Source: a phage. Taken from it: 44,578 bases of DNA. The notes under the pieces were generated by a model. The model had not been told where the DNA came from, made no database searches, and worked only from the letters and a program-made list of their open reading frames with translations. Each line of letters starts with the position of its first letter. Within the stretch, counting starts at the first letter, position 1. Of this stretch, positions 1 through 17,495 are shown piece after piece. Location: the NCBI GenBank assembly GCA_026776125.1, contig GCA_026776125.1_4343.1. One strand, 5' to 3'. The position numbers and the translations under genes were made by a program.

Positions 1-12
1 AAAAAAAAAATA

Positions 13-30
13 AGGCCCGAAAGGGCCTTA
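13..30. terminator. GC-rich hairpin (ggccc-gaaa-gggcc) flanked by A10 and T-rich run; putative bidirectional terminator
   Basis: Inverted repeat read directly in sequence; sits at 3' end of minus-strand gene 28..999. Confidence 0.45.
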
Positions 31-999
31 TTTATGCGGAACTTTAGGCTTCACTCCGTCCCTACAAAGGGCCAAAATCTCTGGAATTATCTTAGGGTCT
101 GAGGTTAGCATCCACTCCGTGGATCCGTCGAAGCTGCCATAGCCCCACTCATTCGACGCTATTTTGTAAGTGTTATGGAAATACACTTCTAGCATTCGTA
201 TTTTTGCGCCGTTATCGTCGCGATGAATGCCAAGCACTTCGAAACCAAAGGGGGTAGCGTTACGCAGGTGACGTATCCGCTGTTTAGGCCTGTTTGATAT
301 CCCTATCTTCACGAATCGGCCGCATTCACTAAGTAACGCATAGAGGAACCCAGTTTTATTAGGGTCGTACCCGCTAGAGGCACATCCAGGACATCCTTGA
401 TTCTGATGAATGATATCTGCTATTCGCTGGCTAAACTCACCATGGATATCGCAAAGCCGCACCGCTTTGCTATACTGATTCTTATACCCTCCTTCGAAGC
501 GCAAGAACTTCCACTTATCACTCACGGCGTAAATCTGCGAGATGCGTTCCTCCTCTGAGTATGAAGGTCTTCCCGCGCAACTAGGACACCCATGTTCCTT
601 ACTAATTGCGTTAGCTATCAAAGTGTCGAACTCCCCGTGTTCGGGACAGAGCCTACGTACCTTAGAATAGGCGTTTCGATAGCCGTTAGGAAATCCTACA
701 AAACTGTATTGCGGGGCTACCTTAGCTAGTTCCTCTACTACATTGCTCTCAGGTTTTCGCTGTTTGCTTGATGAAGATTCTTTTCCACACCTAGGGCACC
801 CAATACCTTTTTTAATACTAGCGGCCGTTGCCGAGAAAGCCCCATGTTCGCGGCAAAATAGGGTTATCTTACTAAACGCACCTGTATACCCCGCACCATC
901 GTCCAACAACTCGTATTTACCGCCGTGGTTGGCTAAATCAGCTAATATCCTCTCGCGGCGCTCAGGCCATAGTATTTTCCGGCACATAATCAACCTCAA
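28..999 (-). CDS. Homing-endonuclease-like protein: three tandem zinc-ribbon repeats plus C-terminal T5orf172/GIY-YIG-like domain
   Basis: Three ~47-aa repeats each with LC.EHGEF...GCPxC pattern; C-terminal GFLYALLSECGRFVKIGISNRPKQR resembles T5orf172/GIY-YIG-type motif. Confidence 0.5.
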   Translation of the reverse strand: MRLIMCRKILWPERRERILADLANHGGKYELLDDGAGYTGAFSKITLFCREHGAFSATAASIKKGIGCPRCGKESSSSKQRKPESNVVEELAKVAPQYSFVGFPNGYRNAYSKVRRLCPEHGEFDTLIANAISKEHGCPSCAGRPSYSEEERISQIYAVSDKWKFLRFEGGYKNQYSKAVRLCDIHGEFSQRIADIIHQNQGCPGCASSGYDPNKTGFLYALLSECGRFVKIGISNRPKQRIRHLRNATPFGFEVLGIHRDDNGAKIRMLEVYFHNTYKIASNEWGYGSFDGSTEWMLTSDPKIIPEILALCRDGVKPKVPHK

Positions 1000-1132
1000 T
1001 AAAGAGTATTAACTAGTATACTATTCAACCATGGGGCCCGGGTCAACATAAACGTCGTGATGTTACGCCCCCTCCATGGTAGCATTGGCTTAAAGTTATT
1101 GCGATGGTATCCAATCTACCGGGGTTTAAATA

Positions 1133-2530
1133 ATGAGCGACTTATACTTTCCACGTAGCCTTAAGCCGGTGGTATCAAAAGGCTACTCAATGACCAGACG
1201 TAACAACGTCTGGAGTGTAGATTTAGCCGGTGGCGGGGTGCGTCAGGGCCGTGACACGTATTATGATGTGTTCCCAATAAGCGTAACCCTGATTACATCC
1301 GCAATGGGGCGGCAGGCGTTTCTGTCGTTCCTCGAGAAAGTCGATGGTGGCGCGTCAAGTTTCTGGATGGCGCACGACTTCGGCATGGGTATTGAGGATT
1401 ATCAAGTCACCATTACATCCACCGTCGCCGAGTCCACTGAAGACGGGATTAACTGGACAATTACTTTCACGGCAACCGCTGAGAAATCGCCGTTCCAGAA
1501 CCTGGAGAACCAGTGCCTGATTAACAATCTGCCAGATTTGTATGGTTGTTATGGGGATTGTCTGGGTAGTTTCCTGAAAATATACGCGAACTATGAGACA
1601 ACGTTCCCGCGCATCTGGAGCAATGAAGAGCCTGCCGGGTATCCACCGATTAACCTTCTGGCGTCGACTCTTGATAGCCGCATTGTGTATGACGCGCCGC
1701 AGGTTTATTACATCAACCGCAACGGCAATCTTGTGCAGTCCGCCGCTAATGAATGGCCTCTTACGTTTATTGATGGGGTTGCTGTTGGACGTGTTCCGCC
1801 GGAATCCGCGTCCAGTAATATCCTGATTAAATCGTCGAAATTATCTGACGCATCGTGGACTAAAACTAGAGCAACAGTGTCGGATGCAGTTGACGGATTT
1901 CTAAACGGTGGTACGTTCTCGCTAGTCCCGAACCAGACAAACGACCGCCATCTCGTATATCAATCGGTGTCTTCCGCTTTTGCGGAGGGTGATGTATACA
2001 CTCTCAGTTACGTTGCTAAGGCATATGGTTATAATTATGCGAGACTTCGCGCCGCTGATGATGCTGGGTTTATCGCGGATTGTGTTGCTAACTTATCGAC
2101 AGGGGTTATTTACGCAGGCGCCCTCGGCAGCGATATAGCAGAGCTTGGCGATGGTTGGTATCGATTTACAGAAACGGTAGCTATACGCCAGGGCGGCGCA
2201 TCTTCTCTGCTTTTAGCGTCACGGGTGTACAACAACTCCGCCGTTGGTTCATTTGTCGGTGACGGGGTTAGTGGGATATTAGTGTGCGCGATGCAAATAG
2301 AAAAATCACCTTTTGCCACGTCGCCAATAGTAACCGAATCGTCACCGGTAACCCGAACGACGGCATCGGCAAAAGTAGTAATGAACGGTGCAACAAGCAT
2401 TGATATTACATATTCAGACGGCTCTGTGGTAAACGTTCAGTCTGTTGACGGTTACGCCACCATCCCCCAAGCGAATTCTGCGTGGGGTAGTAAATATATC
2501 ACTCGTATCGACTTTAATGTGGACGGTTAA
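1133..2530 (+). CDS. Putative tail structural protein (distal tail / minor tail)
   Basis: 465-aa ORF with ATG start, first of a co-directional block that would follow the tape measure gene if window is circularly joined; no enzymatic motifs. Confidence 0.35.
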   Translation: MSDLYFPRSLKPVVSKGYSMTRRNNVWSVDLAGGGVRQGRDTYYDVFPISVTLITSAMGRQAFLSFLEKVDGGASSFWMAHDFGMGIEDYQVTITSTVAESTEDGINWTITFTATAEKSPFQNLENQCLINNLPDLYGCYGDCLGSFLKIYANYETTFPRIWSNEEPAGYPPINLLASTLDSRIVYDAPQVYYINRNGNLVQSAANEWPLTFIDGVAVGRVPPESASSNILIKSSKLSDASWTKTRATVSDAVDGFLNGGTFSLVPNQTNDRHLVYQSVSSAFAEGDVYTLSYVAKAYGYNYARLRAADDAGFIADCVANLSTGVIYAGALGSDIAELGDGWYRFTETVAIRQGGASSLLLASRVYNNSAVGSFVGDGVSGILVCAMQIEKSPFATSPIVTESSPVTRTTASAKVVMNGATSIDITYSDGSVVNVQSVDGYATIPQANSAWGSKYITRIDFNVDG

Positions 2531-2533
2531 TTT

Positions 2534-3049
2534 ATGAGTCAGGAATCAGTAGAAGCAGCCTATCGCCGTAAGCTGGCCTCAAACCCCGACGGCGAGATGG
2601 ACTACATTACGTTACAAATCAGCCACCCGTTGCTGTCGAAGACGTACTATCTTGTGCGCGGGCTACAGGAACTTACGGCAACACTGGAGACAGGCGAAAC
2701 TATCACATTCGAACCTACCCCGATGGAGGCGTCGGGGGCGGCTAACAACAGTGATATGGACCAGACGACAACATTCACTCTGCCGGATATTCTCAATCAA
2801 CTGGATGATGAGATGGATAAAATCCCGATGAGTAATACCGAGTTACCGAAGTTCATATTCCGCCGTTACGTCAGCACTGACCTGTCTTACCCGGCTGACG
2901 GCCCTGTCGTGTACGAGTTACAGGCCATTAATCAGGAGAAGGGCGAGTTCTCCGCGGATGTTGGTACACCTATGCTGAACCAGCGAAGCACTGGTATACT
3001 GATGACACCTAAAGAGATACCGTTATTACGCGGCCTGTTGACCACATGA
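2534..3049 (+). CDS. Putative minor tail protein
   Basis: 171-aa ORF tightly packed after 1133..2530; position in tail block. Confidence 0.3.
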   Translation: MSQESVEAAYRRKLASNPDGEMDYITLQISHPLLSKTYYLVRGLQELTATLETGETITFEPTPMEASGAANNSDMDQTTTFTLPDILNQLDDEMDKIPMSNTELPKFIFRRYVSTDLSYPADGPVVYELQAINQEKGEFSADVGTPMLNQRSTGILMTPKEIPLLRGLLTT

Positions 3050-3411
3050 ATATTAACGACTACACGGGCATACCTTACGACTTTCGCAAGCGCAATTGCT
3101 GGCATCACGTTCGCATTGTACGGGCCGATGCCGGGTTAGAAACCCCGGCGTTCGACGTTACAAGCCCAACGGCGATTAACGAAGCGTTCGACGAAGGCCA
3201 TCGTGACACGAAGGGGCTTACAAAAATTGATAAGCCTGAAAACTTCTGTGCGGTTCTTATGGGGTATCGCCGTGGCGGTCGTATCGTGTGGCACGCGGGA
3301 GTTTACTTCGACGGGATGGTGAGTCATTGCGAGCTTGCGTCCCGTCAGGTACGACTTGACCGGCTGGCGGACCTCAGAGACACGTACACGGAGATTGAAT
3401 TTTGGCGATAA
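3046..3411 (+). CDS. Putative minor tail protein
   Basis: 121-aa ORF with ATGA overlap to upstream gene; synteny only. Confidence 0.3.
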   Translation: MNINDYTGIPYDFRKRNCWHHVRIVRADAGLETPAFDVTSPTAINEAFDEGHRDTKGLTKIDKPENFCAVLMGYRRGGRIVWHAGVYFDGMVSHCELASRQVRLDRLADLRDTYTEIEFWR

Positions 3412-5969
3412 TCCTGCACTACACGCGAAACGCTGAAGGCGCTTTCGACCGTACAAAACACGTCGGGATGCCGATAGATTTTGTCGTTAACCATATTCCT
3501 GACGGCGTGCCTGTGCGCGTCTATCTCGGTGAGATTGGCGATGATACTGATGTTACAGACGACTTCAATGCGCTCAAAGACGAGGACGCCGTGTACCACA
3601 TTATCGAGGGTGCAGGCGGTGGTATCGGCGACGCTATCGGTAGTGTATTCAGTTTCATCCTTAAGCCAATTGCCAAATTGTTCGGGCTAGACACAGCAGC
3701 TAACGCTAATTATTCCGCTACCAACAATCAGGCTACGTCGCCTAACAACAGTCTTACTGACCGCTCGAACAAGCCACGTCCTTATGAACGTTCTTATGAC
3801 ATCTGCGGGACAGTGCAGACTATACCCAATGACCTGATGCAGACGTATAAGGTGTTTAACGCCACGGGGGCGCTTATTGAATATGCGTACTATGACGCCG
3901 GTCGAGGGTATCTGCATATTGAGGAAGACGGTGTAACTGAGGCAGATACCCGAATCAGCGAGATAACTGGCTCGTCGGCGGCGGTGTATTCCCCTTACAC
4001 TTCGCCGAATAACACCAGCACACCACAATTGCATATCGGCGGCCCTATAGACCAGAAATTGTACGTTACATTTAAAAACGCCGATGTCGATGGCGCTGTT
4101 CTTCCCGCCCCTAATGATATCGCTATAGACGTGCAGGACTACACTGTCCAGCGGCAGGGAACAACCGGCGTTGTAGTAGGCGATGACGCTGGTTTCGATG
4201 AGTTTTTGGCGGTCGGGGACCTGGCATACTTCGATAACGTATATGCAGATACAACCCCAGGGTCTTTGGGTAATGAGGTTAACCTGGACGGGAGGTACAC
4301 GGTTCTTTCTGTTAGTGAAACGACCCTTATTGTGGACGTCAGTACAAATCAATCAATATGGAACCAGCTAGGAACATCTGTATGGTTTATAGGTGAAGAG
4401 GGCAACCATCTTATAGGCCCGGCGGATACTTACGCGGCTTCCCTCTCTGGATGGGCGTACATCACCCGTGGAACCGTCGACCGTGTTGTAGCCAATGTGG
4501 CTGCCAGCAACGGCATGTACAAATACAACGGCGACTATAACCGCGCTTCAGTGACAGTCGAACTGCAATACCAGATGGTAGATGAATTGAAACAGCCTGT
4601 AGGTGACATATTTACCGTACGAGGAACCGTAACAGGCCGGAACACGGATTACACAGGGATTACTCTTTACGGAAGTTTACCAACTGCTTCCAGATTCCGC
4701 GCCCGTATGCGTCGTGTTTCGGACACCGATAAAGATTTTGAAGGTACTGTTAGCGACGAGGTTACTTTCACTAATCTATATGGGCAGTCGCTGGACACAA
4801 CCCCCCACTACGGCAACCGTACTACCGTACACTGCGCCCGTAAACAAACCCCACGTGCAGCCGAGGTGTCCGAACCGGAACTGCGCATGATTGCAACCGA
4901 GATGTGCTACAAATACTTAGGTAACGGCGTATTCGATACGGTAATGACACCGAACACTCAGGCCGTGCAGTCGCTAATCAGGCTGGCGCGCGACCCGGCG
5001 GTGGGTAATCTGGAGCTGACAACAGCAAACATGGACAAGTTACTTGCGGTGCAGGAAGAGATTGAGTCATATTTTGGCAGTGAATTAGCCGGGCAGTTCT
5101 GCTACACATTCGACGACTACGACACAACCATGCAAGACATCGTTCAGACCATCGCGGAAGCCGTGTTTTGTACGGCATACCGTAAAGGTGCTGATATTAT
5201 GCTGCGATTCGACCGTCCTGTTGCGGGGCCTGAGATGGTTTTCACCCACCGCAGCAAAACGACCGGTACGGAGAAATGGACGCGCACGTTCAACGATTCG
5301 ACAACCTACGATAGCCTGTCGTTCTCGTACATTGACCCGGATACAAACGTACAGGAGACGATTTATATCCCGGAAGAACTCGGCGCGAACACCGAGGAGT
5401 ACGAATCGAAGGGTGTACGTAACTATCAGCAAGCGTACTGGCTGGCGTGGCGTCGCTACCAGCGCAACACGTTAAGTAAAGTTGTCGTAGAGTTCGAAGC
5501 TACCGAAGAAGGCGCTCTCGCTACTCCCGGCGGCGTAATCAGTGTGGTTAAAGGCTCGCGTATCGCGCCGCAGGATGGTTATGTTGTTGCCGTCAATGGC
5601 CTTACGCTGACGCTGTCTCAGCCTGTTACGTTTACTCCTGGTGATGACCATTCCATCATTCTTAAGAAGCGCGACGGCTCTGTGCAGAGTATTTCTGTTA
5701 TCAAAGGAAGCCACGACCGCGAAGTGATTATGCTCTCCGCGCCGGAGGAGGCAATCTACACGGGGAATAGTGCGCTAAAAACTGAGTTTTCATTCGGCAA
5801 CGAAGCAAGGCATAATGCTCAGAAGATAGTTGTTTCTTCAATCGACCCCAGCGACGACCGCACGGTCAAGATTACGGGCTACAACTATGATGACGGATTC
5901 TATAAATACGACGGCGTCGCGCCATACGGCAGCGGTTTCTCCGACGGATTCAGCAATGGTTTTAATTAA
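3402..5969 (+). CDS. Putative tail tip / central tail fibre protein
   Basis: 855-aa ORF (TTG at 3402; an internal ATG about 60 nt downstream is an alternative start); large S/T/G-rich structural-looking protein. Confidence 0.35.
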   Translation: MAIILHYTRNAEGAFDRTKHVGMPIDFVVNHIPDGVPVRVYLGEIGDDTDVTDDFNALKDEDAVYHIIEGAGGGIGDAIGSVFSFILKPIAKLFGLDTAANANYSATNNQATSPNNSLTDRSNKPRPYERSYDICGTVQTIPNDLMQTYKVFNATGALIEYAYYDAGRGYLHIEEDGVTEADTRISEITGSSAAVYSPYTSPNNTSTPQLHIGGPIDQKLYVTFKNADVDGAVLPAPNDIAIDVQDYTVQRQGTTGVVVGDDAGFDEFLAVGDLAYFDNVYADTTPGSLGNEVNLDGRYTVLSVSETTLIVDVSTNQSIWNQLGTSVWFIGEEGNHLIGPADTYAASLSGWAYITRGTVDRVVANVAASNGMYKYNGDYNRASVTVELQYQMVDELKQPVGDIFTVRGTVTGRNTDYTGITLYGSLPTASRFRARMRRVSDTDKDFEGTVSDEVTFTNLYGQSLDTTPHYGNRTTVHCARKQTPRAAEVSEPELRMIATEMCYKYLGNGVFDTVMTPNTQAVQSLIRLARDPAVGNLELTTANMDKLLAVQEEIESYFGSELAGQFCYTFDDYDTTMQDIVQTIAEAVFCTAYRKGADIMLRFDRPVAGPEMVFTHRSKTTGTEKWTRTFNDSTTYDSLSFSYIDPDTNVQETIYIPEELGANTEEYESKGVRNYQQAYWLAWRRYQRNTLSKVVVEFEATEEGALATPGGVISVVKGSRIAPQDGYVVAVNGLTLTLSQPVTFTPGDDHSIILKKRDGSVQSISVIKGSHDREVIMLSAPEEAIYTGNSALKTEFSFGNEARHNAQKIVVSSIDPSDDRTVKITGYNYDDGFYKYDGVAPYGSGFSDGFSNGFN

Positions 5970-5981
5970 AGAGGACTCTAT

Positions 5982-7967
5982 ATGTCAAGCGGATGCGGTG
6001 ACGTTTTAAGCCTGGCGGATTTACAAACCGCCAAGAAACACCAAATTTTTGAAGCCGAGGTTATCACCGGTAAATCCGGCGGGGTTGCTGGTGGCGCCGA
6101 TATTGATTACGCGACCAACCCTGTTACCGGGCAGACCCAGAAGACGCTTCCTGCTGTGTTGCGTGATGCCGGTTTTTCTCCCGTATCGTGGGACTTTTCC
6201 ACCGGCGGTACGTTAACAGTTAATGACCGCGACAAAGTGGTGTATGACCCCGTAAGCAAGACGTGGTACTCATATGCGGGTACGTTGCCGGTTGTTGTTC
6301 CCGCGAGTTTTAATCCAGTCGGTAACGCTAACTGGAAGCCGCAGACAGACCCAAATTTGCGTAATGATTTGGCGTCAAGTACCGCCGGTTTAGGGGCTTC
6401 ACTGGTGTCTTTTTCCAACGGTAACACCGTTGAAACATTATCTGACGCGGAAGGTGCCAAGAACATAGGCAGTGGCGAAAGGAGTTTGCTTGCACGTAAC
6501 AATGATATTAAGCATTCTGGCGACTTTTCTACCCTTCAAGCCGCGGTAGATGCGTCGTTAACTAAAAACGACTTAATTGTTTCTCCGGGTGAGTATACAG
6601 AAGCAATCACTCTGGGTAGTAAGCAGATAAAAGGTGTAGGTGGTGCTGCAATATTAAAACCATCGGCAAACTATGCAAATACTGTACAGGTTAATTTATC
6701 CACCCCGCACTGGCAGTTTCGACACAGCGGTGGTTTTGCCGTAGATGGTACAGGTACAACTGGGGCCGTAGGTATTAGTTTTGACCCGTCAGACCAATAT
6801 TCCGGACGTCATAATTTTAGTGATTTATACATCCACAACATCAACAAGGCCATTCAGAAGCCTTCCGGGAACATCGGCAATACGTGGAGAAGTATTGGGG
6901 TATCTACGTGTGATTGGGGGTATTACGCGATTAGTGGCTCGAAGATGCATTGCGGGGCCGATACCCTCTACAATATCCACTTCGACGGCATCTCCACCTA
7001 TGCCGTCTACCTAAACGGTACTGTCGATAACGGTGGGATAGGCGGATGGTGGCTTAAAGACTCCATTATTGAGGCTTCCGGAGGCGGCGGGATATACTTA
7101 AAAAGCAAATCGGGTGACTGTCCTCCATCTCCATGCGGGGTATCCAATGTATGGATGGAAGCTATTGCAACATCATCGGCTGTTCAGGTAGATGGCGTGG
7201 CGCAAAAACCGCGAGTTCTCAAGTTGGTAGACACCGCGATATTCTTTGCTGAGTATTCTTATCTCAACAACATCGAGCTATCCAACTCCAACTTAGTAAC
7301 TTATGGTTGCCGTTTTGACAACGCTGATGGTAATCAGGATATTGTAGTGGATGCACAAAGCACCATTGTAGCCCACGATGTGTATTTAAACGGCAGTTCT
7401 GGAAAGGACGTTATTGTAGAGTCTGTCGCGTCGCAATCCGCAACGGTAGCCACTACAAACTTGTCTCTACGAGGAAATTTAACAAGGGGACGAGTGTTTA
7501 ATACGCCGACGGGGAATAAGTTAAAAGCTATCACATTTGACTCAGGTAGCCATAGTTTTTCTGGTAGCGGTACCGTTAACGGTTCGACTGTATCTGACGG
7601 ACTTCACGCCGCTACATGTACCGAATTTTCATTCCCTGGGTCCGGTTTATATGAAATGGTAGCGTCAAGAACGACACTTACATCCGGTAGATGGTACGTG
7701 TGGGGTGTCAACTCTCGCCTCCAATCAGGAACAGCAGATGTGAGTATAACGTTAGGTATTACTATGGGTAGCGTTTATACTAAGTCTGGTGAGTGGATTA
7801 GCACATTTGGGGTGGGTAAAGCTTCCGCTAACGGTATTGTAGGTCTGTACGTCTCTACTGGGGGAGGTTCAGGTGCTGTTATCAGATTTAGTGACTTCTT
7901 CATCGCTGAGTTTACGACGCAGGCTCAGGCTTTAGCTTTCGCTAACTCCCGAATGTCGTTGGCTTAA
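5982..7967 (+). CDS. Putative tail fibre / tailspike (receptor-binding) protein
   Basis: 661-aa ORF, last of tail block, Gly/Ser/Thr/Asn-rich repeats suggestive of beta-helix or fibre; followed by terminator. Confidence 0.45.
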   Translation: MSSGCGDVLSLADLQTAKKHQIFEAEVITGKSGGVAGGADIDYATNPVTGQTQKTLPAVLRDAGFSPVSWDFSTGGTLTVNDRDKVVYDPVSKTWYSYAGTLPVVVPASFNPVGNANWKPQTDPNLRNDLASSTAGLGASLVSFSNGNTVETLSDAEGAKNIGSGERSLLARNNDIKHSGDFSTLQAAVDASLTKNDLIVSPGEYTEAITLGSKQIKGVGGAAILKPSANYANTVQVNLSTPHWQFRHSGGFAVDGTGTTGAVGISFDPSDQYSGRHNFSDLYIHNINKAIQKPSGNIGNTWRSIGVSTCDWGYYAISGSKMHCGADTLYNIHFDGISTYAVYLNGTVDNGGIGGWWLKDSIIEASGGGGIYLKSKSGDCPPSPCGVSNVWMEAIATSSAVQVDGVAQKPRVLKLVDTAIFFAEYSYLNNIELSNSNLVTYGCRFDNADGNQDIVVDAQSTIVAHDVYLNGSSGKDVIVESVASQSATVATTNLSLRGNLTRGRVFNTPTGNKLKAITFDSGSHSFSGSGTVNGSTVSDGLHAATCTEFSFPGSGLYEMVASRTTLTSGRWYVWGVNSRLQSGTADVSITLGITMGSVYTKSGEWISTFGVGKASANGIVGLYVSTGGGSGAVIRFSDFFIAEFTTQAQALAFANSRMSLA

Positions 7968-7973
7968 AACTAA

Positions 7974-7996
7974 GGCCCCAAACGGGGCCTTTTCTC
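7974..7996 (+). terminator. Rho-independent terminator (ggcccc-aaac-ggggcc + TTTTCTC)
   Basis: Perfect 6-bp stem plus T-run directly after stop of 5982..7967. Confidence 0.6.
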
Positions 7997-8129
7997 TACT
8001 CTTCTGATAACTTCTCCAGTACAAACGCCAGTTGCGCATTAGCGGCGTCTCTTTGCTGACGTAGCCGCAGAACCTCTTCTTCGAGTTCCTTGATACGTTT
8101 TTGCAATGCCGGAATTGGGGCTATGATGT

Positions 8130-8615
8130 TCACGCGGTTTCTCCGTGGTTTTTATGAAATCCGTAAGCAGCTTCCGCGGCTTTACGCGCGGCAACAGCTT
8201 CTCCAAAATCATCAAACTGTCCTAGATGTATTTTTCTTCTGTCGACTTTTATCTCTGCTACCCATTTGTTTCTTCTCTTTTCCCGCCATACACCAAGAGC
8301 GCCGCTAGTATTGTTTACCCCTATCGATGCGTTGCGGCTATTTTCAGTGTTGGTAACTTTCCGCAGGTTGCATATTCGGTTATCGGTTCGAATGTGATTG
8401 ATATGGTCTATCTGTTCCTGTGGGGTAAGTGGGTTATCTGGATTGCATATGTCCCATGCTAACCGATGTGCTAGTTCTAGTTTTCCGTTTATTCGGATAC
8501 GAATGTACCCCTCCCGCGGACAAAAACATCCGGCTTTCTTTCCAACAAAACCCCTACGTTTTGTTTCGACCCATGTGAAAATACCGGTTTCAGGGTCGTA
8601 TGATACCTTGCTCAT
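8130..8615 (-). CDS. HNH homing endonuclease with AP2-like DNA-binding domain
   Basis: HNH-type region (ELAHRLAWDIC...IDHINHIRTDNRICNLR...TNTENSRN) and AP2-like segment (WVAEIKVDRRKIHLGQFDDFGEAVAARKAAEAAYG). Confidence 0.7.
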   Translation of the reverse strand: MSKVSYDPETGIFTWVETKRRGFVGKKAGCFCPREGYIRIRINGKLELAHRLAWDICNPDNPLTPQEQIDHINHIRTDNRICNLRKVTNTENSRNASIGVNNTSGALGVWREKRRNKWVAEIKVDRRKIHLGQFDDFGEAVAARKAAEAAYGFHKNHGETA

Positions 8616-10036
8616 TTCTTACTCCTACGTTTCATATAATTAAGTAGTTCGTCCTGTACAGACCTTTTCTCATCTGTACGCGTGGCGACAACTTCATCAA
8701 GAGTATCTCGGGCTATTATTTGATAAATGAATACTGACCGTTTGTACCCAGATTGCATCTGCCTTACAGGACCTATGCGTTCGATAACCTGCAGATAATG
8801 TTCCAGGTTCCACCCCTGACTCATAAAGGCCATGTGGTGCCCGCCGTGTTGTAGCGACAGCCCGTGGCCCGCGGAGGCTGGGTGTATCAGGAGCATAGGT
8901 ATTTCCCCACGGTTCCACGCTTCCATCTGCTTGTTCCCCCTAGCGCCTTTGGCGAACGCCTGTGCCTGTGGGAATCGCTTAAGGATACGCTCCAGTTCGT
9001 GTTTAAACTGATAGGCTACCAGCAACGGCGCACCCTGCAACTCCTCAACAATCGACTCGAGCGCATCCAGTTTCGTGTCGTGCACTTTCTCCCAGTCTTT
9101 GGTCGCTTCGCCATCAGGCCCAGACACATATACGGCGCCGGAAGCAATCTGCAAACACTTCGACGTCTTCGCTGCCGCGTTAGCCGCTTCAACTTCCCCG
9201 CTCTCCAGTTCCGCGAATAACTTCTCCTCCATATCGATGTACGCCTGACGCGCTTTCTTCGGCAGGTCGATTTCAACCGGCACAATAATCGGCGCTTCAC
9301 AACCGAACCACTCGGCAGGGTCGATGGTCAGGCTGATGTCTTTCATCTTCTGATGAATCTCATTATCTGCACCCGGTCGCGCATGATACTCGCGAGCCAT
9401 AGCCGATTTACCTTTCTGTACCGAGTTAAACCAGCGGTCGGTGAATGCTGTGTACGAAGAGCCGAGGCGCTCGCCAGCGTCGATAAACCAGTTCTGACCC
9501 CACAAGTCTTTGAGGCCGTTTGGTGACGGTGTGCCTGTCAGGTTGATGAAACGCTTAACCTTTCCGAACGCAACCTTGCTGAGCGCCTTTGCCCGCTTGC
9601 TACCACCCGAACGGCTGCGGAACGATTTAAGCTTCGTGCTTTCATCGGCAACGATAACCGTAAAAGGCCAGTCGTCTTTGCCGTAGTAGTCAATTAGCCA
9701 CTCGATAACTTCGTAGTTAGTGCACACCACGTTAGCGTCTGACTCCAGCGCCGCGATGCGGCGCTTCTCCGAACCGGTCGCATCGACGACACGCAGACAA
9801 GGGAAGTTCCATTTCTCTTGTTCTGCAGGCCACGTACCCGACGCAACACGCAACGGGGCGAGGATTAACACGCGGTCCTCTTCTGTAAGCTGCCCGTTGC
9901 GGAACAAGCGGTTTAACACCCACATAGTAGAGGAGGTTTTACCCCCTCCCATGCCACACCAGATATTACAGCGAGGGTGTTGCAGCATGAACGAAGTCAT
10001 GAGCTTCTGGTATTCGCGCCTTTGAAACTTACTCAT
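8612..10036 (-). CDS. SNF2-family (DEAD-like) DNA helicase
   Basis: Walker A GMGGGKT, motif II VIVADEST, SNF2 motif III LTGTPSPN. Confidence 0.75.
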   Translation of the reverse strand: MSKFQRREYQKLMTSFMLQHPRCNIWCGMGGGKTSSTMWVLNRLFRNGQLTEEDRVLILAPLRVASGTWPAEQEKWNFPCLRVVDATGSEKRRIAALESDANVVCTNYEVIEWLIDYYGKDDWPFTVIVADESTKLKSFRSRSGGSKRAKALSKVAFGKVKRFINLTGTPSPNGLKDLWGQNWFIDAGERLGSSYTAFTDRWFNSVQKGKSAMAREYHARPGADNEIHQKMKDISLTIDPAEWFGCEAPIIVPVEIDLPKKARQAYIDMEEKLFAELESGEVEAANAAAKTSKCLQIASGAVYVSGPDGEATKDWEKVHDTKLDALESIVEELQGAPLLVAYQFKHELERILKRFPQAQAFAKGARGNKQMEAWNRGEIPMLLIHPASAGHGLSLQHGGHHMAFMSQGWNLEHYLQVIERIGPVRQMQSGYKRSVFIYQIIARDTLDEVVATRTDEKRSVQDELLNYMKRRSKK

Positions 10037-10737
10037 TTACCGCCCCCATGAATGCCTTTATAAATTCAGCGGCTACTTGCGGGACGATGGCATTGCCGTA
10101 ACCGCGCAATCGTCCCACTCTGGCGGGTATCCCATTAGCCAGCGGGAATGTGCTGGGTTCAACTGGCCGGAACTTTCCATCCTTGCGTATCACTGTCACC
10201 CCGCTGCCTTTGAAGTCGTTCGCTGTCGGTGTAGGCCAATTGGTGTGCGCCAAAGAACAGTCTGTCGCGTTTGTGCGGTGCGCCGACGCTACAAGCTGGG
10301 AGTACGGCAAACCCGACGGCGTAGTCTTCTCCTTCCAGGTGAGTTTGTAAATCGCACATCCACGATTTTGCAATTGCTGGCGCAACCTGTTCCCCAAAGA
10401 GGACTGGAGGGTGGCACTCGCTGATGAGGTCGAGGAACACAGGTGCGAGGTGTCTCGGGTCGAACTGTCCGAGTTGCTTTCCTGCCGCGCTAAACGGTTG
10501 GCAAGGCGGGCTTCCCGTCCAGATAGGCGTATCTTCCGAAACTCCCGCAAGTCTGAGCGCGAGAGGCCAGCCGCCGATACCAGCGAAAAAATGACACTGG
10601 GTGAACCCGTCGAGGTCTTCTGGCTTAACTTCGGTAATGCTTCTTTCATCTACAACTCCAAAAGGTATATGACCCTGTTTTATTAGTTCACGCAGCCACG
10701 CGGCTGCGCCTTTATCCCATTCGTTGTAATAGTTCAT
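10029..10737 (-). CDS. DNA (cytosine-5)-methyltransferase, split across two reading frames (frameshift near 10240-10250)
   Basis: ORF 10159..10737 carries motif I FAGIGG, motif IV PCQPFS, motif VIII-like [10 protein letters not shown]; the +1 frame (ORF 10029..10649) carries the C-terminal motif [19 protein letters not shown]. Confidence 0.6.
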
Positions 10738-10925
10738 TTCGCCACCAGAACTAACTCTTTACGCCCGAATGCCGTAACGTTACCGGTTACATCTTCGATA
10801 ACCAGTTTACCGTTTGACTCGACGAATACCGTATCAACGGCAACAGGGCGGCGGGTCTTAACGTTGAAAATCATGTCGCCAGGTACGATGTCGCGGGCTG
10901 GTTTGCGGTCATATTCGTGTTTCAT
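10734..10925 (-). CDS. Hypothetical protein (63 aa)
   Basis: ORF with ATGA overlap to downstream MTase gene; preceded by class I promoter element. Confidence 0.4.
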   Translation of the reverse strand: MKHEYDRKPARDIVPGDMIFNVKTRRPVAVDTVFVESNGKLVIEDVTGNVTAFGRKELVLVAK

Positions 10926-10955
10926 TTCCCAATTCCTTATATTGTTGGTGTGTGA

Positions 10956-11258
10956 TTAACTATAATAGTTCGCTATTAGGTCGTCAATCTGTTTAAACGA
11001 ACCTACGACAAAAACATTTGCACCACGTCTACGCATCCGCTCATGCTCTCGTAACTGGTGCGGGTCTGGCTTCGTGTTTTCGTCTTTCTTAACCTCGACA
11101 AACCAGATTATGCCGTCGGGGAGAATTACCAGCAGGTCGGGCGCTCCGTTTCTACCCTCATACACTATCTTACGAACGAGGCCACCAATGGCCTCGAATC
11201 GGTCTTTTGCGTATTTCTGTATTTTGCCCTCAGGCGTACGCATCCACACACCCCTCAC
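10956..11258 (-). CDS. VRR-NUC domain nuclease (PD-(D/E)xK fold)
   Basis: GAPDLLVILPDG...IIWFVEVKK pattern typical of VRR-NUC. Confidence 0.6.
   Translation of the reverse strand: MRGVWMRTPEGKIQKYAKDRFEAIGGLVRKIVYEGRNGAPDLLVILPDGIIWFVEVKKDENTKPDPHQLREHERMRRRGANVFVVGSFKQIDDLIANYYS
10959..10987 (-). promoter_or_regulatory. Sigma70-like promoter, class I (TTGACG-N17-TATAGT on minus strand)
   Basis: Hexamers with 17-bp spacer read on minus strand; near-identical copies at 14527 and 17467. Confidence 0.45.
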
Positions 11259-11324
11259 GTTTCGTATGTTCAGTACCGCAGCGCGGACAGATTCGACAGT
11301 CTTCTTCGTAGAACCGGTAAATTT

Positions 11325-11456
11325 TCATTCCAGCACCCACAGATAAATTGCGATGAACATGCCCAATATGGCAACCATCATGCCGTATTGACCCTCGTGA
11401 CAGTAGACACCTGCGGCAAATCCCGCCAGTACCGCGATAATCAGTTTACTTAGCAT
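11325..11456 (-). CDS. Small hydrophobic peptide (43 aa), not in ORF track
   Basis: ATG-initiated ORF translated by hand (MLSKLIIAVLAGFAAGVYCHEGQYGMMVAILGMFIAIYLWVLE); overlaps the 3' end of the polymerase gene. Confidence 0.3.
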   Translation of the reverse strand: MLSKLIIAVLAGFAAGVYCHEGQYGMMVAILGMFIAIYLWVLE

Positions 11457-13617
11457 AGCGTTTTAACTCCTGACCTTCCGCTACAAGAGGGAACCCCTCC
11501 GCCCATTCTGGTAATTCGCACATCAATCGCTCAAGCTCTGCGACATTGTATTCCGGCGTATCTGGAGTTTCGCAGATAATCTCATCGTGGACATGAAGTA
11601 CAATTGGATAACCGTTTGCTTCAACGTTAAGTAGCGCATTAGCCAGCAAGTCACGGCACAGTGCCTGAGTGCAGTTTTCCACCAGTTTACCGGAGTAGGT
11701 GTACTGGAAGCCCCACTGCCTGGTTAACTGATTTTCACCCTGATACTTGATGCGCACGTTAGTAGAAACTTTTCCGTCTTCGTCTGTCTCTTTTGACACG
11801 CTCAACCCGACGCCCGGGTATGACATAACGCGACCTGACGGCAACGTCATGCGCAACCACCAACCAGCGACTTTGTTGCCGTTGTTGTCTGTTTCTACGT
11901 TGCGAGAAAACTTAACCCCGCGAGGGCCAGCGGTGAACTCTTTCCCCGGATTACGGATTGCTGCCATAGCTGCGTCTTCAATATCGCGCCAGAATTGGAC
12001 TATTGCAGGATTAGCTTCCCGGTACATGCGCTTTAAAGCGTCACAGGTGCGCCAAACTTTCTTATCAAGGATATATGAGGGTCGGTCATCTTTTTCACCA
12101 GGACGTGGTGGTCGCTTGGCTTCCTGAATACGCGCCCATTCGTATCCGCGTGCGGTAGCGGCCCAAATATGGTCCGGGAATGTACTGTCTAAAGTGTTAG
12201 TCATGTCATTCAAATCAAGACCTAAGTTTTTAGCAAACGTGACGAAAGCACCGACGCCCCCCGCGTAGCCGAGTCCCAGAACCATTGCTTTGGCTATTTG
12301 TCTTTGGTCCTTTGTTACGGCTTCATATGCAACATTGAACACCGTTGATGCGAGTTTCTTATACACATCAACCCCGTTTACAAATACTTCGATTAAATCG
12401 TCTTCACCCGCCAGCCACGCAAGACCGCGGCCTTCGACGTTAGAGTAATCGGCAACGACAAACTTATGCCCTGCTTCCGGTATGATGCAACTGCGAACCG
12501 TCGATGCCGTTAGCTTGGCTACGTCAAATCGGCGGTGCGCACGGCCCTTAAGTAACGCAGAAATGCCTTTATCCAGTTCATCATCATGATAGTACCCGCG
12601 CGCCAGGTTCTGCGGCTGGAAGCCTTTACCGGCAAATCGTAATGTACGCTTAGCTCCACCGTACTGGATACAACCGCGGCGTCGGTCGTCCGACGAGCGG
12701 CCTAACAGCAGCGGGTTATATTTCGTGGACGCTGTTGACGCGGCCCCGAGGCGCATTTCGATAATCATCCGGGCGTCGTCCGGTAAATCATCATCTGCCA
12801 ACAGGTCATTCAGCGTCGACTTCTGCGCGTTGTGGATTCGATGCGCAGGTGCCAGTTCACGCAGAATCGGAAGGAAGTCTTTACCAGTAAGAGAGCCGCC
12901 ATATTTGCGTTGGGCTTCTTCCTGTAACTGCGCCTTGTGTTTCTCTACGGCTTCAATCGCGGCTTCCGCCAGTGCGACGTCAACCTTAAACCCACGGTCA
13001 TTGATTAACTGGTCCAGTTCCAGTACACGGTCCTCGAACTCGGAGTTACCCCAACGCGGTAGCTTATGGAAGACTTCACGCATAGCAGTAATGTCGCTTA
13101 CGGCGTATTTGATGAACAGCGCCCACTCGTCAGGGTGAGTTTCTGCGGTGTAGCGGCGGATTTTGTAGTTCTTCGGCGCCGGTTTAGAGAAACGCTTAAT
13201 CAGAGCCTTGCCGCGTTTATCTTTCGCGTTGTCTGCAGACACGCCCAGCACTTCGCACAGCGCATCAAGAGAACCCGGCAGCGCGTGACGGAACGCCCAA
13301 ATCATAGTATCAATGGTGTTACTTACCGGAATATCAAAGCCCCAGCAGTGTTTCATGATTAGGCGATCGAAAAGTCCACCGTTGTGCCACACCATCTTGA
13401 TGCGGCTGTTGGGCTTAACAAGGCGGCGCAGTGCGCGGTGCAAATCCCCCGGCATGTCGCTGCCGTCGGTGCAATCCCATACCTGTACAGGCTCGTCATC
13501 AAAAGCATAGGTACAGATGAGCACTTCTGTAGTCGGATGCTCGGCGTAAGCATAGGAACCGACTTTCTTTAAATCGGCTTCGGAGAATGTTTCAAAGTCC
13601 AGGTATAAGTAGCTCAT
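11446..13617 (-). CDS. Family A DNA polymerase with N-terminal 3'-5' exonuclease domain
   Basis: Exo I motif LDFETFS; motif A VADYSNVEGRGLAW; motif B RQIAKAMVLGLGYAGG; motif C HVHDEI. Confidence 0.85.
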   Translation of the reverse strand: MSYLYLDFETFSEADLKKVGSYAYAEHPTTEVLICTYAFDDEPVQVWDCTDGSDMPGDLHRALRRLVKPNSRIKMVWHNGGLFDRLIMKHCWGFDIPVSNTIDTMIWAFRHALPGSLDALCEVLGVSADNAKDKRGKALIKRFSKPAPKNYKIRRYTAETHPDEWALFIKYAVSDITAMREVFHKLPRWGNSEFEDRVLELDQLINDRGFKVDVALAEAAIEAVEKHKAQLQEEAQRKYGGSLTGKDFLPILRELAPAHRIHNAQKSTLNDLLADDDLPDDARMIIEMRLGAASTASTKYNPLLLGRSSDDRRRGCIQYGGAKRTLRFAGKGFQPQNLARGYYHDDELDKGISALLKGRAHRRFDVAKLTASTVRSCIIPEAGHKFVVADYSNVEGRGLAWLAGEDDLIEVFVNGVDVYKKLASTVFNVAYEAVTKDQRQIAKAMVLGLGYAGGVGAFVTFAKNLGLDLNDMTNTLDSTFPDHIWAATARGYEWARIQEAKRPPRPGEKDDRPSYILDKKVWRTCDALKRMYREANPAIVQFWRDIEDAAMAAIRNPGKEFTAGPRGVKFSRNVETDNNGNKVAGWWLRMTLPSGRVMSYPGVGLSVSKETDEDGKVSTNVRIKYQGENQLTRQWGFQYTYSGKLVENCTQALCRDLLANALLNVEANGYPIVLHVHDEIICETPDTPEYNVAELERLMCELPEWAEGFPLVAEGQELKRYAK

Positions 13618-13778
13618 TTCTTTTTCCTTAAATCCAGTGCCTTAGTTTCGCTGAGTCTTATTTTCATACAATCACGGCAAATCCACACATGCCTGTACCC
13701 GGCACGGTACTCATCCGCGTACCACGGAAGTGACTTCATATATCGGTATACGTGCTTACAGAAAAACATCATTTTCGA
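13614..13778 (-). CDS. Small Cys-containing protein (about 54 aa), not in ORF track
   Basis: Hand-translated ORF (MMFFCKHVYRYMKSLPWYADEYRAGYRHVWICRDCMKIRLSE...) with stop overlapping the polymerase ATG (ATGA). Confidence 0.3.
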   Translation of the reverse strand, partial: SKMMFFCKHVYRYMKSLPWYADEYRAGYRHVWICRDCMKIRLSETKALDLRKKK

Positions 13779-13828
13779 CCCTTAGTAAAAAGACCCAATG
13801 AAGGGCCTTAGTTAAATTGATTCAGATA

Positions 13829-14458
13829 TTAGCGGCGGCGACGTTCGCGGCGCGGTGCTTCATCTTCTTCGTCGTCTTCCAGGTCGTCGGTGCTCGCTAC
13901 TACACTGGAGCCGCCGAAGCGTTTACCTTCGCCCATATACTTGATGCCGAGGATGGTAGCGCACAGGTTTTTCCAATCTTTGTGCCACCATAGCTCTACA
14001 GATACGTTTGCGACACATCCGCTATATACCTGCTCGCCTTCTATTTCCTTCCCGTCGATGTTGAAATCAGGCTCTGTTTGTTTTTCACCTTTAGCCGATG
14101 TCATAATCACCGGTTGGCGGTTGTTAGTAGCACGGAAATACAAACCTTCTTCAAAATCCTCAATCGGATTGTCACGCATTGCCAGGTCGCGTACGCAGCA
14201 TTTGTCTGCGTGGTGGTCTACTCCGTAGTTGGCTTTCATCCATTTTTCAGCAGCAGCGGTCCCGATTGCCTCCGTTACAACTTCCAGCGCGGTGTCGTAA
14301 AGCGCGTCGATTTGAGGGTGGTCAGGCTGCATAAGAACCGTAACCTGATATTTGCCCTTAATCAGTTTACCGGTTTTCTTGTCCTCAGAGTCGGCAGCTC
14401 GTTCGAATACGTTAACCCATGCAGTGTTTACTTTACGCAGATTCAGTTTAATACCCAT
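13829..14458 (-). CDS. Hypothetical protein with acidic C-terminal tail; possible ssDNA-binding protein
   Basis: 209-aa ORF ending DDLEDDEEDEAPRRERRRR; position in replication operon; function is inference. Confidence 0.3.
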   Translation of the reverse strand: MGIKLNLRKVNTAWVNVFERAADSEDKKTGKLIKGKYQVTVLMQPDHPQIDALYDTALEVVTEAIGTAAAEKWMKANYGVDHHADKCCVRDLAMRDNPIEDFEEGLYFRATNNRQPVIMTSAKGEKQTEPDFNIDGKEIEGEQVYSGCVANVSVELWWHKDWKNLCATILGIKYMGEGKRFGGSSVVASTDDLEDDEEDEAPRRERRRR

Positions 14459-14526
14459 CGTGATTTCTCGCTTTTCAGTTTATATTTCAAAGTTTACTCC
14501 GGGAAGCTGCCCGGCCAGTGATTAGA

Positions 14527-14555
14527 ACTATAATAGCTAACTATTCAGGTGTCAA
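14527..14555 (-). promoter_or_regulatory. Sigma70-like promoter, class I (TTGACA-N17-TATAGT)
   Basis: Near-identical to elements at 10959 and 17467; about 65 nt upstream of gene start at 14458. Confidence 0.45.
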
Positions 14556-14803
14556 CCCTTCCAGCCAGTTATTTTCTCAACTATCTCGATATATTTGTTA
14601 GGCCATTTCATGCTGTTTATGAATCGAAGCGCCTGTGTCTTCCACGATTTATCACTCAGGATGGCTTCTATGTCGCGAGTTTGCGCTATGCATACCGTAA
14701 TACACATTAAGATAAATGTTGGTAGCGTTAGGGGTAGCATAAGAACCCAGAAAACAATACACGCCACAAAACCGCCAATTACTCTGAACATTTTACGAAT
14801 CAT
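14552..14803 (-). CDS. Small membrane protein
   Basis: Hydrophobic segments (FVACIVFWVLMLPLTLPTFILMCITVCIA); ATG at 14803 forms ATGA overlap with upstream gene. Confidence 0.4.
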   Translation of the reverse strand: MIRKMFRVIGGFVACIVFWVLMLPLTLPTFILMCITVCIAQTRDIEAILSDKSWKTQALRFINSMKWPNKYIEIVEKITGWKG

Positions 14804-16041
14804 TCTAAATCCTCCTCTGTTACCTGATTCCACTCAGGACGCTTGTCGTCTGCCGTTGCAACACATGGCGCGCCGGGCTTACGAGTAATAAAGTCTTTCA
14901 GTTCTTCTTCCGGTATGACTTTAACAGCTTCGGTAGGTGACATGAGCACTTCTTTAGTCAGCTTGTCGCCGTAGAGTTCTGTTACTTTCTCCGCGTCTTT
15001 CCATGCACGATTACCCGGGCGGCCTTCAACCAACTTGTAACCAGGAACTTTCTTACCTGAATGCAACGCGGCCGCCATAGCTTTCTCAACCTTGTCGATG
15101 TGCTGGCGCAACAGCGGCAACTTCTCATACTCAGCTACGAGTTGCTCCGGCGTCAGTTCCAGCACAAAGTCGTCTTCCAGTTCTTCCGCCAGTACAGAAT
15201 TAACCGTCTTTGTACGCGCAGCGCATTGTTCAGAGAACCGGCACCACTGACAACCATCTACCGATGGCTTGAAGTCCGACGCTTTCAGGTTCTTCTTGCC
15301 ACGGAAATACGCATCAAGCGCTAACAGCGCGCGTTTCTGTGCGAACTTAGCGAACAGTTCCAGTCCTTCAACCGAGATGTCCCACTCTGTCGCGCCCCCA
15401 GCGTAAGGCTGGAAGATGACCAGACGAACGGTTGTTATGTTATAACGTCTCTTGAGTCGACGATAAACACCGAGAGCGTAAAGCATAAGCTGCTTGTTTT
15501 CTTTCGCTTCGACGCGATGCCGCCCGGTTTTCAGGTCGCCGATAATGAGCATGTGCTCGTCGGTGTTTGCCAGTTCCTGGACAGCAACGAGGTCAGCGGT
15601 TCCGAACGTCTCAACGCCTTCATACCCCGGATGCAATACCTCAGTAAGATTGACACGCATTTCCAGCTTGGCGTAAGTCGCTACGTCTATAATCGCTTTG
15701 CAGTAGTCGGTGTACTTGCGCACCTGCTCAATCATGTCCGCCGTAATCAGTACCGCGCCTTTCATCGGGCTGATTAGCGCCTTAATCTGACCTTTGCCTT
15801 CATCCAGTACGTAAGCGCCGACTTCACGCTCCAACGGCAACGCAGTGCCGCGTATATAGGCGTTGAGATGGACCTCAGCTATGGTGTGCATGGCGGTCCC
15901 CGTAACGGCAGCTTTACCTGACGTGTTAGGAATATCTTTTTCACAGGCCAGTGATGCACTGCACGTCAGCCACTTCTTAGCACCTGACGGCGACAATAAG
16001 GCGTGCACATCATTATTGCCACCGCGTTCTTTTAGAATCAT
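14800..16041 (-). CDS. PD-(D/E)xK exonuclease, Cas4/RecB-like with Cys cluster
   Basis: IGDLKTG...QLMLYA nuclease-type motifs; cysteines at N-terminus (LTCSASLAC) and C-terminus (CQWCRFSEQC) suggest an Fe-S cluster; ATG at 16041 preferred over GTG at 16056. Confidence 0.6.
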   Translation of the reverse strand: MILKERGGNNDVHALLSPSGAKKWLTCSASLACEKDIPNTSGKAAVTGTAMHTIAEVHLNAYIRGTALPLEREVGAYVLDEGKGQIKALISPMKGAVLITADMIEQVRKYTDYCKAIIDVATYAKLEMRVNLTEVLHPGYEGVETFGTADLVAVQELANTDEHMLIIGDLKTGRHRVEAKENKQLMLYALGVYRRLKRRYNITTVRLVIFQPYAGGATEWDISVEGLELFAKFAQKRALLALDAYFRGKKNLKASDFKPSVDGCQWCRFSEQCAARTKTVNSVLAEELEDDFVLELTPEQLVAEYEKLPLLRQHIDKVEKAMAAALHSGKKVPGYKLVEGRPGNRAWKDAEKVTELYGDKLTKEVLMSPTEAVKVIPEEELKDFITRKPGAPCVATADDKRPEWNQVTEEDLE

Positions 16042-16642: not shown

Positions 16643-16685
16643 AATTCCGACCCTCAGTTAAAGCGGCCCGAAGGCCGCGGGATAG

Positions 16686-17186: not shown

Positions 17187-17210
17187 TTGTTTCTATCCTG
17201 TTTGTGTAAG

Positions 17211-17438: not shown

Positions 17439-17466
17439 ATCTGCCCCTCTCGTTTGGTATGGGCTA

Positions 17467-17495
17467 ACTATAATAGCGAACTATTCACATGTCAA
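17467..17495 (-). promoter_or_regulatory. Sigma70-like promoter, class I (TTGACA-N17-TATAGT)
   Basis: Hexamers and spacer nearly identical to elements at 10959 and 14527. Confidence 0.5.

Follow-up and report, generated by a model that had tools for sequence, protein, structure and literature searches.

We found that the minus-strand gene near the start of this 44,578-nucleotide stretch of phage DNA (hereafter, the window) is likely to be a freestanding mobile gene for a homing endonuclease from the T5orf172 family, within the GIY-YIG superfamily, and that it is carried in a cassette at the junction between the tape-measure and tail genes of a Kagunavirus. A sequence-only reading of the same DNA had suggested a freestanding mobile endonuclease here, and that suggestion is supported by the nuclease domain of the encoded protein, by relatives in which the site is empty, and by a near-identical cassette in another phage contig (L008).

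The gene and its genomic setting

The sequence is the genome, in circularly permuted form, of a Kagunavirus (Guernseyvirinae), a siphophage of E. coli. The two ends of the window are contiguous, as two related contigs pass directly from the sequence at position 44578 into that at positions 1-3. Because of this contiguity, the gene sits between the tape-measure protein (TMP) gene upstream (42235..44574, plus strand, Pfam TMP_3) and the first distal-tail gene downstream (1133..2530, plus strand, PHROG 11600/384/5939), the latter being annotated in relatives as tail tip protein M or as a minor tail protein. The earlier placement of the gene at the tape-measure/tail junction is therefore right once the window is read as a circle. 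It had also been called the sole minus-strand gene of its block, and we agree that it is the only credible one from about 41461 to 8130, across the join of the window's end and start. Two other minus-strand ORFs, at 29531-30184 and 38885-41421, were checked as further endonuclease genes and are not.

The minus-strand ORF at 28..999 is present as described, and translation from the TTG at 999 would give the 323 aa originally assigned to it; the likely start, however, is the ATG at 987, which gives 319 aa. We take 28..987 (minus strand, stop codon at 28-30) as the span that encodes the putative freestanding homing endonuclease, because a GAGG sits 8 nt upstream of the ATG at 987 and because the gene call for a 94%-identical homologue (P0001) is also 319 aa long. 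The assignment draws on the ORF list and on a match to PHROG 681. The ORF is full length and free of frameshifts, with no Zn ligand and no catalytic position lost.

A tandem array of zinc fingers

The N-terminal part of the protein contains three tandem repeats bearing the strings CPRCG, CPSCAG and CPGCAS, exactly as claimed from the sequence. The repeat unit of about 47 aa that was proposed along with them fits the conserved core only, and the actual period is 65-69 aa. The motif CxxHG is found at aa 45, 114 and 179 and GCPxC at aa 63, 133 and 198, and pairwise local alignments among the three repeats gave z = 12, 18 and 27 relative to shuffled controls, with the highest of these values obtained for repeat 2 against repeat 3. 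Repeat 1 (aa ~9-68; 784..963, minus strand) has the ligands C45, H48, C64 and C67, and is placed by Pfam CapR/DUF723 and by alignments with z = 12-18. Repeat 2 (aa ~79-139; 571..753, minus strand) has C114, H117, C134 and C137, and repeat 3 (aa ~144-204; 376..558, minus strand) has C179, H182, C199 and C202; both are placed by Pfam together with the repeat alignments. The Cys columns of repeat 3 are invariant in the family alignment.

Each repeat has the ligand set C-x2-H...C-x2-C, and all 12 ligand positions are present. Three Pfam families scored above their cutoffs: CapR (46.9 bits, in three stretches), DUF723 (35.5 bits) and DUF4379 (25.6 bits), with the top stretch at aa 98-144, in repeat 2. 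The Pfam description of DUF4379 is "probable treble clef zinc finger." The repeats had been labelled zinc ribbons, which we do not retain, as their C-H-C-C ligands are of the treble-clef-type CapR/DUF723/DUF4379 kind rather than those of the classical CxxC...CxxC zinc ribbon.

The idea that these repeats make up a modular DNA-binding array fared better. Arrays of the same kind are also joined to other C-terminal domains, for example MTES_1575 (PF18741), and are found as well in proteins named very-short-patch-repair endonuclease by their source, both kinds occurring among cellular and metagenomic proteins. In addition, the protein matches PHROG 559, "HNH endonuclease," only over aa 16-209, which is the zinc-finger array. 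Because that match is confined to the array, it suggests a DNA-binding module in common with proteins called "HNH," and the two observations together support modularity. An HNH enzyme is ruled out as the identity of the protein itself, in which no Pfam match to the HNH family was found and in which the PHROG 559 match covers the finger array only. DNA binding has been shown for CapR, where Cys-to-Ser mutations abolish it (PMC8096241).

A C-terminal T5orf172/MUG113 domain

The T5orf172/GIY-YIG-like motif that had been noticed after the repeats was recovered by profile search, in which the C-terminal part of the protein scored 22.5 bits against MUG113 (barely passing the Pfam cutoff of 22.3 bits), 19.7 bits against T5orf172 (just missing the cutoff of 20 bits), and 1.5e-66 against PHROG 681, "endonuclease." An HMM search had been named as a check on the sequence-only reading, with a lack of nuclease-domain similarity as the result that would count against it; such similarity was found. 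From profiles and predicted fold, we place the domain at aa ~212-310 (58..354, minus strand).

Its key residues are Y216, K227-I-G229, R237, E267, H271 and T290-E291. K227, G229, R237, E267, G288, T290 and E291 are invariant in the family alignments, and R237 and E267 are invariant in both a 14-sequence and a 7-sequence alignment. When the domain was aligned to Odn (Gp88) of phage ICP1, E267 paired with Odn E180 and R237 with the conserved Arg of Odn. DNA is cut by Odn in vitro, and nuclease activity is lost in the E180A mutant (PMC8263062).

With residues 200-319 as the query, an exhaustive HMMER search recovered 476 relatives, 244 of which were at E<=1e-10. A word-indexed search with the C-terminal 120 aa came back empty, which, given the 476 HMMER relatives, we read as a limit of the prefilter and not as absence. 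Among ten sampled relatives, the MUG113 cutoff was passed by nine and the T5orf172 cutoff by eight, and all nine of the MUG113-passing proteins also have CapR/DUF723/DUF4379 finger matches.

When the C-terminal domain was modelled alone, a structure search showed that its predicted fold, of the alpha/beta type, fits that of GIY-YIG nucleases. The full-length AF2 model (pTM 0.40), that of a flexible chain with several domains, gave only noise when compared with the PDB using Foldseek, the best hit having an E of 0.03 and a TM of about 0.1. Nothing meaningful was found when the full protein was compared with PDB sequences using phmmer, the hit of record being DNA polymerase mu at an E of 0.46. 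From the alignments and the predicted fold, we infer that the domain looks catalytically competent.

The cassette and its boundaries

In the nearest relative, 22664BS2, nothing separates the two neighbouring genes: the TMP stop codon and the ATG of the tail gene overlap as TAATG, within an empty junction that includes ...AAGAAATGCGCCGGGGTTTAAATAATGAGCGACTTATATTTCCC.... The window exceeds this empty site by 1,137 bases, which gives an endonuclease cassette of ~1.14 kb. The insert is bounded by an imperfect 17-nt direct repeat whose copies are identical at 14 of 17 positions. Alignment to the empty site places the upstream copy, ACCGGGCTTTAAGTAGT, at 44559..44575 (plus strand), where it covers the last TMP codons and the stop; the downstream copy, ACCGGGGTTTAAATAAT, aligns at 1118..1134 (plus strand), in the ribosome-binding region of the tail gene. 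Both copies align to identical bases of the empty site (L001 3501-3514), and the duplication keeps the TMP C-terminus as well as the translation-initiation region of the tail gene.

Between the start of the endonuclease gene and that of the tail gene is an intergenic region that is borne by the cassette (988..1132, by sequence comparison). Its identity is 100% to L008 and 95% to a second contig, L004, and it can also be aligned with the cassette of phages DUEC01 and fFiEco02, which encodes a two-repeat endonuclease, despite a protein identity of just 43%. Prompted by repeats in the sequence, we asked whether 1047-1118 contains a degenerate duplicate of the 5' end of the tail gene or of the 3' end of TMP that might serve as a pseudo-target or operator. 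We rejected this idea, since the local alignments were no better than those of shuffled sequences, with a fraction of 0.15-0.45 of the shuffles scoring at least as high.

The sequence-only reading also placed a hairpin at 13-30. A hairpin is indeed found there, but it is larger, with an 11-bp stem that extends over 8..33 (minus strand), a GAAA/UUUC loop and a run of 10 U, and it is predicted to act as an intrinsic terminator (fold -16.3 kcal/mol, z = -3.9). It overlaps the endonuclease stop codon and lies between the convergent TMP and endonuclease genes. The hairpin occurs in every occupied site that we examined, including those occupied by an HNH gene, and it is missing from the empty site of 22664BS2. 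An Rfam scan of 1-1400 found no structured-RNA family and no group I intron; its only two hits were both below their gathering scores and both on the terminator.

On the other side of the gene, a promoter scan predicted a sigma-70-like promoter, TTGACC-17-TAGTAT, at 1018..1046 (minus strand). It is plausible that this site drives the endonuclease gene. We go no further than plausible because this single match, the only promoter-like one in 1-1300, is within chance expectation, 1.7 matches being expected by chance. As we read the alignment, the corresponding position has TTGCCA-17-TAGCAT in DUEC01 and TTGACC...TAGTAT in L004. In the same scan, no plus-strand sigma-70 promoter that could restart the tail operon downstream of the hairpin passed.

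Empty and occupied junctions among relatives

If the gene had been universally present at this position, with conserved flanks, mobility would have been hard to argue. This outcome is excluded: when the 22664BS2 junction was used as a query, the junction was contiguous, and the site thus empty, in 55 of the 60 best-matching phage records. The remaining five rows come from four phages in which the junction is split by an insert.

The inserts are of more than one kind. DUEC01 and fFiEco02 (the latter homologue having come from a protein search) encode a 248-aa, two-repeat T5orf172 homologue, 43% identical to the window protein, at the exact same junction and on the same strand. At this junction, XY1 and SHAK7693 encode an unrelated 216-aa HNH endonuclease (PHROG 953, 8.9e-65) with a weak AP2 domain, and VIPECOTH07 has an insert of similar size that is annotated as an HNH endonuclease. 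The HNH(-AP2) gene of XY1 and SHAK7693 shares its insertion point and minus-strand orientation with the window gene, together with the same GGCCC-GAAA-GGGCC hairpin after the TMP stop; it differs in being carried by a cassette of ~730 bp, in encoding an unrelated protein, and in recoding the tail gene over its first ~10 codons.

The three-repeat allele is found at the same site in L008 (an IMG/VR contig) and in L004 (a Logan contig). The L004 endonuclease is 94% identical at the amino acid level, and the TMP and tail gene that flank it are of different types. More distantly, Bas80, an unrelated siphophage, encodes a 31%-identical homologue in an analogous gap between TMP and tail gene. At the nucleotide level, a search of INPHARED with the cassette matched only the 31-nt hairpin, the allele itself being absent from that collection.

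Signatures of transfer and selection

Over 44182..1257 (~1.65 kb), one substitution and a change in poly-A length are all that separates the window from L008; this tract takes in the last ~400 nt of the TMP gene (44182-44578), the cassette, and the tail gene over its first ~125 nt. Within it, the endonuclease gene differs at 1 of 960 nt. Outside this tract, the two are ~90% identical, with adjacent 200-nt windows at 88-93%. Identity peaks centred on the cassette are also seen when DUEC01 is compared with fFiEco02 and SHAK7693 with XY1; in the first of these pairs, identity is 98.5-99.5% over the gene and 85-93% in the adjacent flanks. A tract of identity centred on the cassette fits a recent transfer with co-conversion of the flanks. 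Ordinary mosaic recombination could yield such a tract without any endonuclease, however, because the window and L008 share a second, 100%-identical tract inside the TMP gene, at 42979-43778.

A comparison of the window and L004 alleles gave a dN/dS of 0.20 for the whole gene; the nuclease domain alone gave 0.13 and the finger array 0.26. These values indicate that the endonuclease ORF is under purifying selection, and that this selection is strongest in the nuclease domain.

Comparison with known systems

Barth, Dunham and Seed (2023) reported that 87% of 229 T5orf172 endonuclease genes have zinc fingers of the CapR, DUF723 or DUF4379 type (PMC10448857). In that survey the fingers are often repeated, as "beads on a string," with recombination altering the repeat number, and the genes cluster beside essential genes, including TMP, with cognate sites that hold homologues or endonucleases of other classes (PMC10448857). 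The window protein has the same order of domains, an N-terminal finger array followed by a C-terminal T5orf172 domain, as ICP1 gp174, gp165, gp121, gp53, gp130 and their relatives (PMC10448857; PMC8096241). Like those genes, the window gene is freestanding, adjoins essential structural genes, TMP among them, and is sporadic in its distribution, with a variable number of modules. There are also differences. The window protein is only ~23% identical to ICP1 gp121 over the C-terminal domain, its fingers are C-x2-H...C-x2-C as opposed to the CxxC...CxC reported for CapR, and its host lineage, the Kagunaviruses of E. coli, is absent from PMC10448857, as are the Guernseyvirinae. The architecture, the repeat variability and the placement next to TMP have thus already been published, and what is new here is this allele in a Kagunavirus; we count the allele as new because Kagunaviruses are absent from that study and because INPHARED holds no nucleotide match to it.

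Odn has its T5orf172 catalytic domain in common with the window protein, and work on Odn shows directly, by biochemistry, that such a domain cleaves double-stranded DNA (PMC8263062). Within the T5orf172 family, it is the one protein for which the literature cited here reports nuclease activity (PMC8263062; PMC10448857). Its remaining features are different: Odn has a RepA_N DNA-binding domain and no zinc-finger array, is directed at the replication origin of a satellite, and is not regarded as a homing enzyme. CapR, the capsid operon repressor of PLE, is related to the window protein through its other half, by way of a homologous zinc-finger domain, and gave its name to Pfam PF21817. CapR matches only the N-terminal fingers of these endonucleases, whereas the window protein keeps a conserved nuclease domain. 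It has been described as domesticated from such an endonuclease, and acts as a transcriptional repressor (PMC8096241).

The relation to the classical GIY-YIG endonucleases (I-TevI, I-BmoI and T4 SegA-G) is at the superfamily level only. The nuclease domain is N-terminal in I-TevI and C-terminal in the window protein, and the second motif is K-I-G in the window protein in place of the classical Y-I-G. A Pfam search with the window protein gave no match to PF01541 (GIY-YIG) at E<=1, and no DNA-binding module of the I-TevI type was detected in it. The His/Tyr of helix 1 in canonical GIY-YIG domains is reported to be missing from T5orf172 (PMC8263062).

A model for the cassette and its alternatives

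If the gene is a homing endonuclease gene, we propose that it would be transcribed from its own sigma-70-like promoter, with transcription ending at the hairpin terminator. The three fingers, strung like beads, would bind an extended site spanning the TMP stop and the tail-gene start in a co-infecting phage that is without the cassette, and the T5orf172 domain would cut near the bound junction. Repair of the break by recombination from the carrier genome would then introduce the cassette and, with it, a few hundred bp of flanking sequence. The carrier would be protected by the 1.14-kb insertion, which splits the target in two. This self-immunity through target disruption is an assumption on our part, because the junction is still whole on its tail-gene side, thanks to the 17-nt copy downstream.

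An alternative is that the protein is a weapon directed at other genomes, which cuts the DNA of competitors, whether phage or satellite, resulting in marker exclusion or anti-satellite defence, and so benefits its carrier but does not copy itself into the cut. This is how Odn, the sole biochemically characterised T5orf172 nuclease, acts, and the family is known to shuffle DNA-binding modules in conflicts between phages and satellites (PMC10448857). Nevertheless, we regard this reading as unlikely. Site-specific homing predicts that homologues, and even the unrelated HNH gene, would be found at exactly the same junction, as they are, and the 31%-identical homologue in Bas80 lies at an analogous one. 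Furthermore, the window protein matched none of the PADLOC defence models at E<=0.01, and a nucleotide search of E. coli genomes found no relative of the cassette DNA. The two roles are not mutually exclusive. It is also possible to imagine that the protein is now a domesticated DNA-binding regulator, working in the manner of CapR or of I-TevI as an autorepressor to tune the tail operon or its own promoter, with a nuclease domain that no longer drives mobility. The homology of its fingers to CapR, which is proven to repress by binding a promoter and which stems from such endonucleases, would agree with this, as would the location of the gene inside the late tail operon, adjoining a conserved intergenic region, and Barth et al. 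warn that sequence alone cannot establish homing (PMC10448857). We nonetheless think a regulator quite improbable, since the T5orf172 domain is present with an invariant catalytic Arg and Glu, and since purifying selection within the gene is strongest there (omega 0.13). Most close relatives are without the gene, which argues against a core regulatory role, and the identity peak centred on the cassette recurs in three independent phage pairs.

Finally, the gene could be the decaying, inactive remnant of a homing endonuclease, locally fixed and carried along by ordinary recombination. Homing endonuclease genes often degenerate after they have invaded a site, and the nuclease domain scores only marginally in Pfam. 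Yet the intact reading frame, with its full set of Zn ligands and catalytic positions, the dN/dS of 0.20, and the single difference in 960 nt beside flanks that differ by ~7-10% make a remnant very improbable indeed.

As a mobile homing endonuclease gene, the window gene would be a clean natural case of a recently described class that is biochemically almost unexplored, in a phage genus, the Kagunaviruses of E. coli, that is well sampled and easily handled. That a single junction comes in empty, two-repeat, three-repeat and HNH-occupied versions makes it a convenient system for biochemistry, and isolates without the cassette exist (22664BS2 and the BASEL phages Bas70-76). Kagunaviruses could thus be used to test homing, the position of the cut, and the effect of finger number on target specificity. 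Otherwise, the gene adds an accessory selfish gene to phage annotation and leaves current understanding unchanged; it is a clear but ordinary example.

A more speculative extension, which we consider doubtful, is that the three ~65-aa fingers make up a modular and recombinable DNA-recognition code in which each finger reads its own sub-site of the TMP/tail junction. The two- and three-repeat alleles and the fast-evolving repeat 1 would then reflect retargeting through the gain, loss or exchange of modules, and the junction with its shared hairpin would be a landing pad at which T5orf172 and HNH genes replace one another. Were this true, and were the specificity of each module deciphered, the array could become a new programmable DNA-binding scaffold. 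Of the 19 amino acid differences that separate the window protein from the L004 allele, 10 lie within aa 8-57, in repeat 1 with its N-terminal edge. In 149 proteins homologous to the C-terminal domain, the number of matches to a strict Zn-motif pattern ranges from 0 to 5, with a mode of 3.

Endonuclease homologues in the tape-measure/tail gap

Escherichia phage Bas80, which belongs to a different siphophage lineage, encodes a 291-aa homologue of the T5orf172 putative homing endonuclease (L013 2507-3382; 31% identity) that is annotated as "endonuclease". This gene lies on the opposite strand and fills the gap that separates the tape-measure gene from the tail gene after it. Because the Bas80 homologue occupies this position, we conclude that the gap between the tape-measure gene (TMP) and the distal-tail genes is a recurrent landing site for the T5orf172 endonuclease family. 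When the window's protein was compared with the 94% identical allele on the Logan contig (L004), 10 of the 19 amino-acid differences were found at residues 8-57, that is, within and just ahead of repeat 1 (window 784-963). Judged by this alignment, finger module 1 is the fastest-evolving module of the endonuclease.

A terminator hairpin of the form GGCCC-loop-GGGCC (window 8-33) is common to all of the occupied junctions, among them those of the window, the IMG/VR contig L008, the Logan contig, DUEC01 (L002), fFiEco02 (L003) and SHAK7693 (L005). It is carried by two unrelated cassette types, T5orf172 and HNH. In the window, L008 and SHAK7693 the loop sequence is GAAA, but in the Logan contig, DUEC01 and fFiEco02 it is TTTC; the hairpin therefore occurs in both orientations.

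Possible sequence exchange around the junction

When the TMP gene is compared with those of DUEC01 and the Logan contig, similarity begins abruptly at one and the same coordinate, window 43768, approximately 800 nt upstream of the cassette; for fFiEco02 it begins at window 43711. Upstream of these onsets, identity in the TMP is only ~50-70%. The boundary could mark a recombination breakpoint that these sequences share, or else the point where a conserved C-terminal domain of the TMP begins or ends.

On the other side of the cassette, the first distal-tail gene (window 1133-2530) exists in two forms, one of 465 aa (the window, the empty-site phage 22664BS2 and DUEC01) and one of 166 aa (fFiEco02 and the Logan contig), with similarity between them limited to the initial ~450 nt. 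The extra ~300 aa of the longer form match PHROG 11600 (function unknown) and may therefore be a C-terminal module for decoration or receptor binding that can be exchanged.

Behind the HNH cassette that fills this junction in SHAK7693 and XY1, the first ~10 codons of the tail gene are recoded (L005 2216-2290 and L006, compared with window 1133-1163), so that the N-terminus reads MSSLKFPAS... and not MSDLYFPRS... as in the window, and similarity to the window returns only from window 1163. This recoded start could represent target-site immunity or a co-converted foreign flank.

The GenBank record of SHAK7693 (OR594180.1, vB_EcoM_SHAK7693) gives the taxonomy as Autographiviridae/Kayfunavirus and carries "EcoM" in the name. 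The taxonomy line looks wrong, since the TMP-tail region is ~89-91% identical to the Kagunavirus of the window.

Other minus-strand genes and genome ends

A conserved minus-strand block (window 38885-41421) is flanked on one side by a plus-strand gene (37684..38856) and on the other by the genes for the tail assembly chaperones. Its products are a small protein that weakly matches a P-loop family (AAA_18), a protein with a PNKP phosphatase domain of the HAD type (3.3e-20), a calcineurin-like metallophosphoesterase and a protein for superinfection immunity; the block may be a nucleic-acid end-repair module. A lone minus-strand gene (window 29531-30184), situated between the portal and head-morphogenesis genes, matches PHROG 6095 "amidase" (9e-121) and, weakly, KilA-N; it is not an endonuclease gene.

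The window is an apparently complete, circularly permuted Kagunavirus genome, and the related contigs L008 and L004 run unbroken through its join (44578 to 1). Just after the TMP stop comes a poly-A run (window 1-10), which has 10 A in the window versus 8 A in L008.
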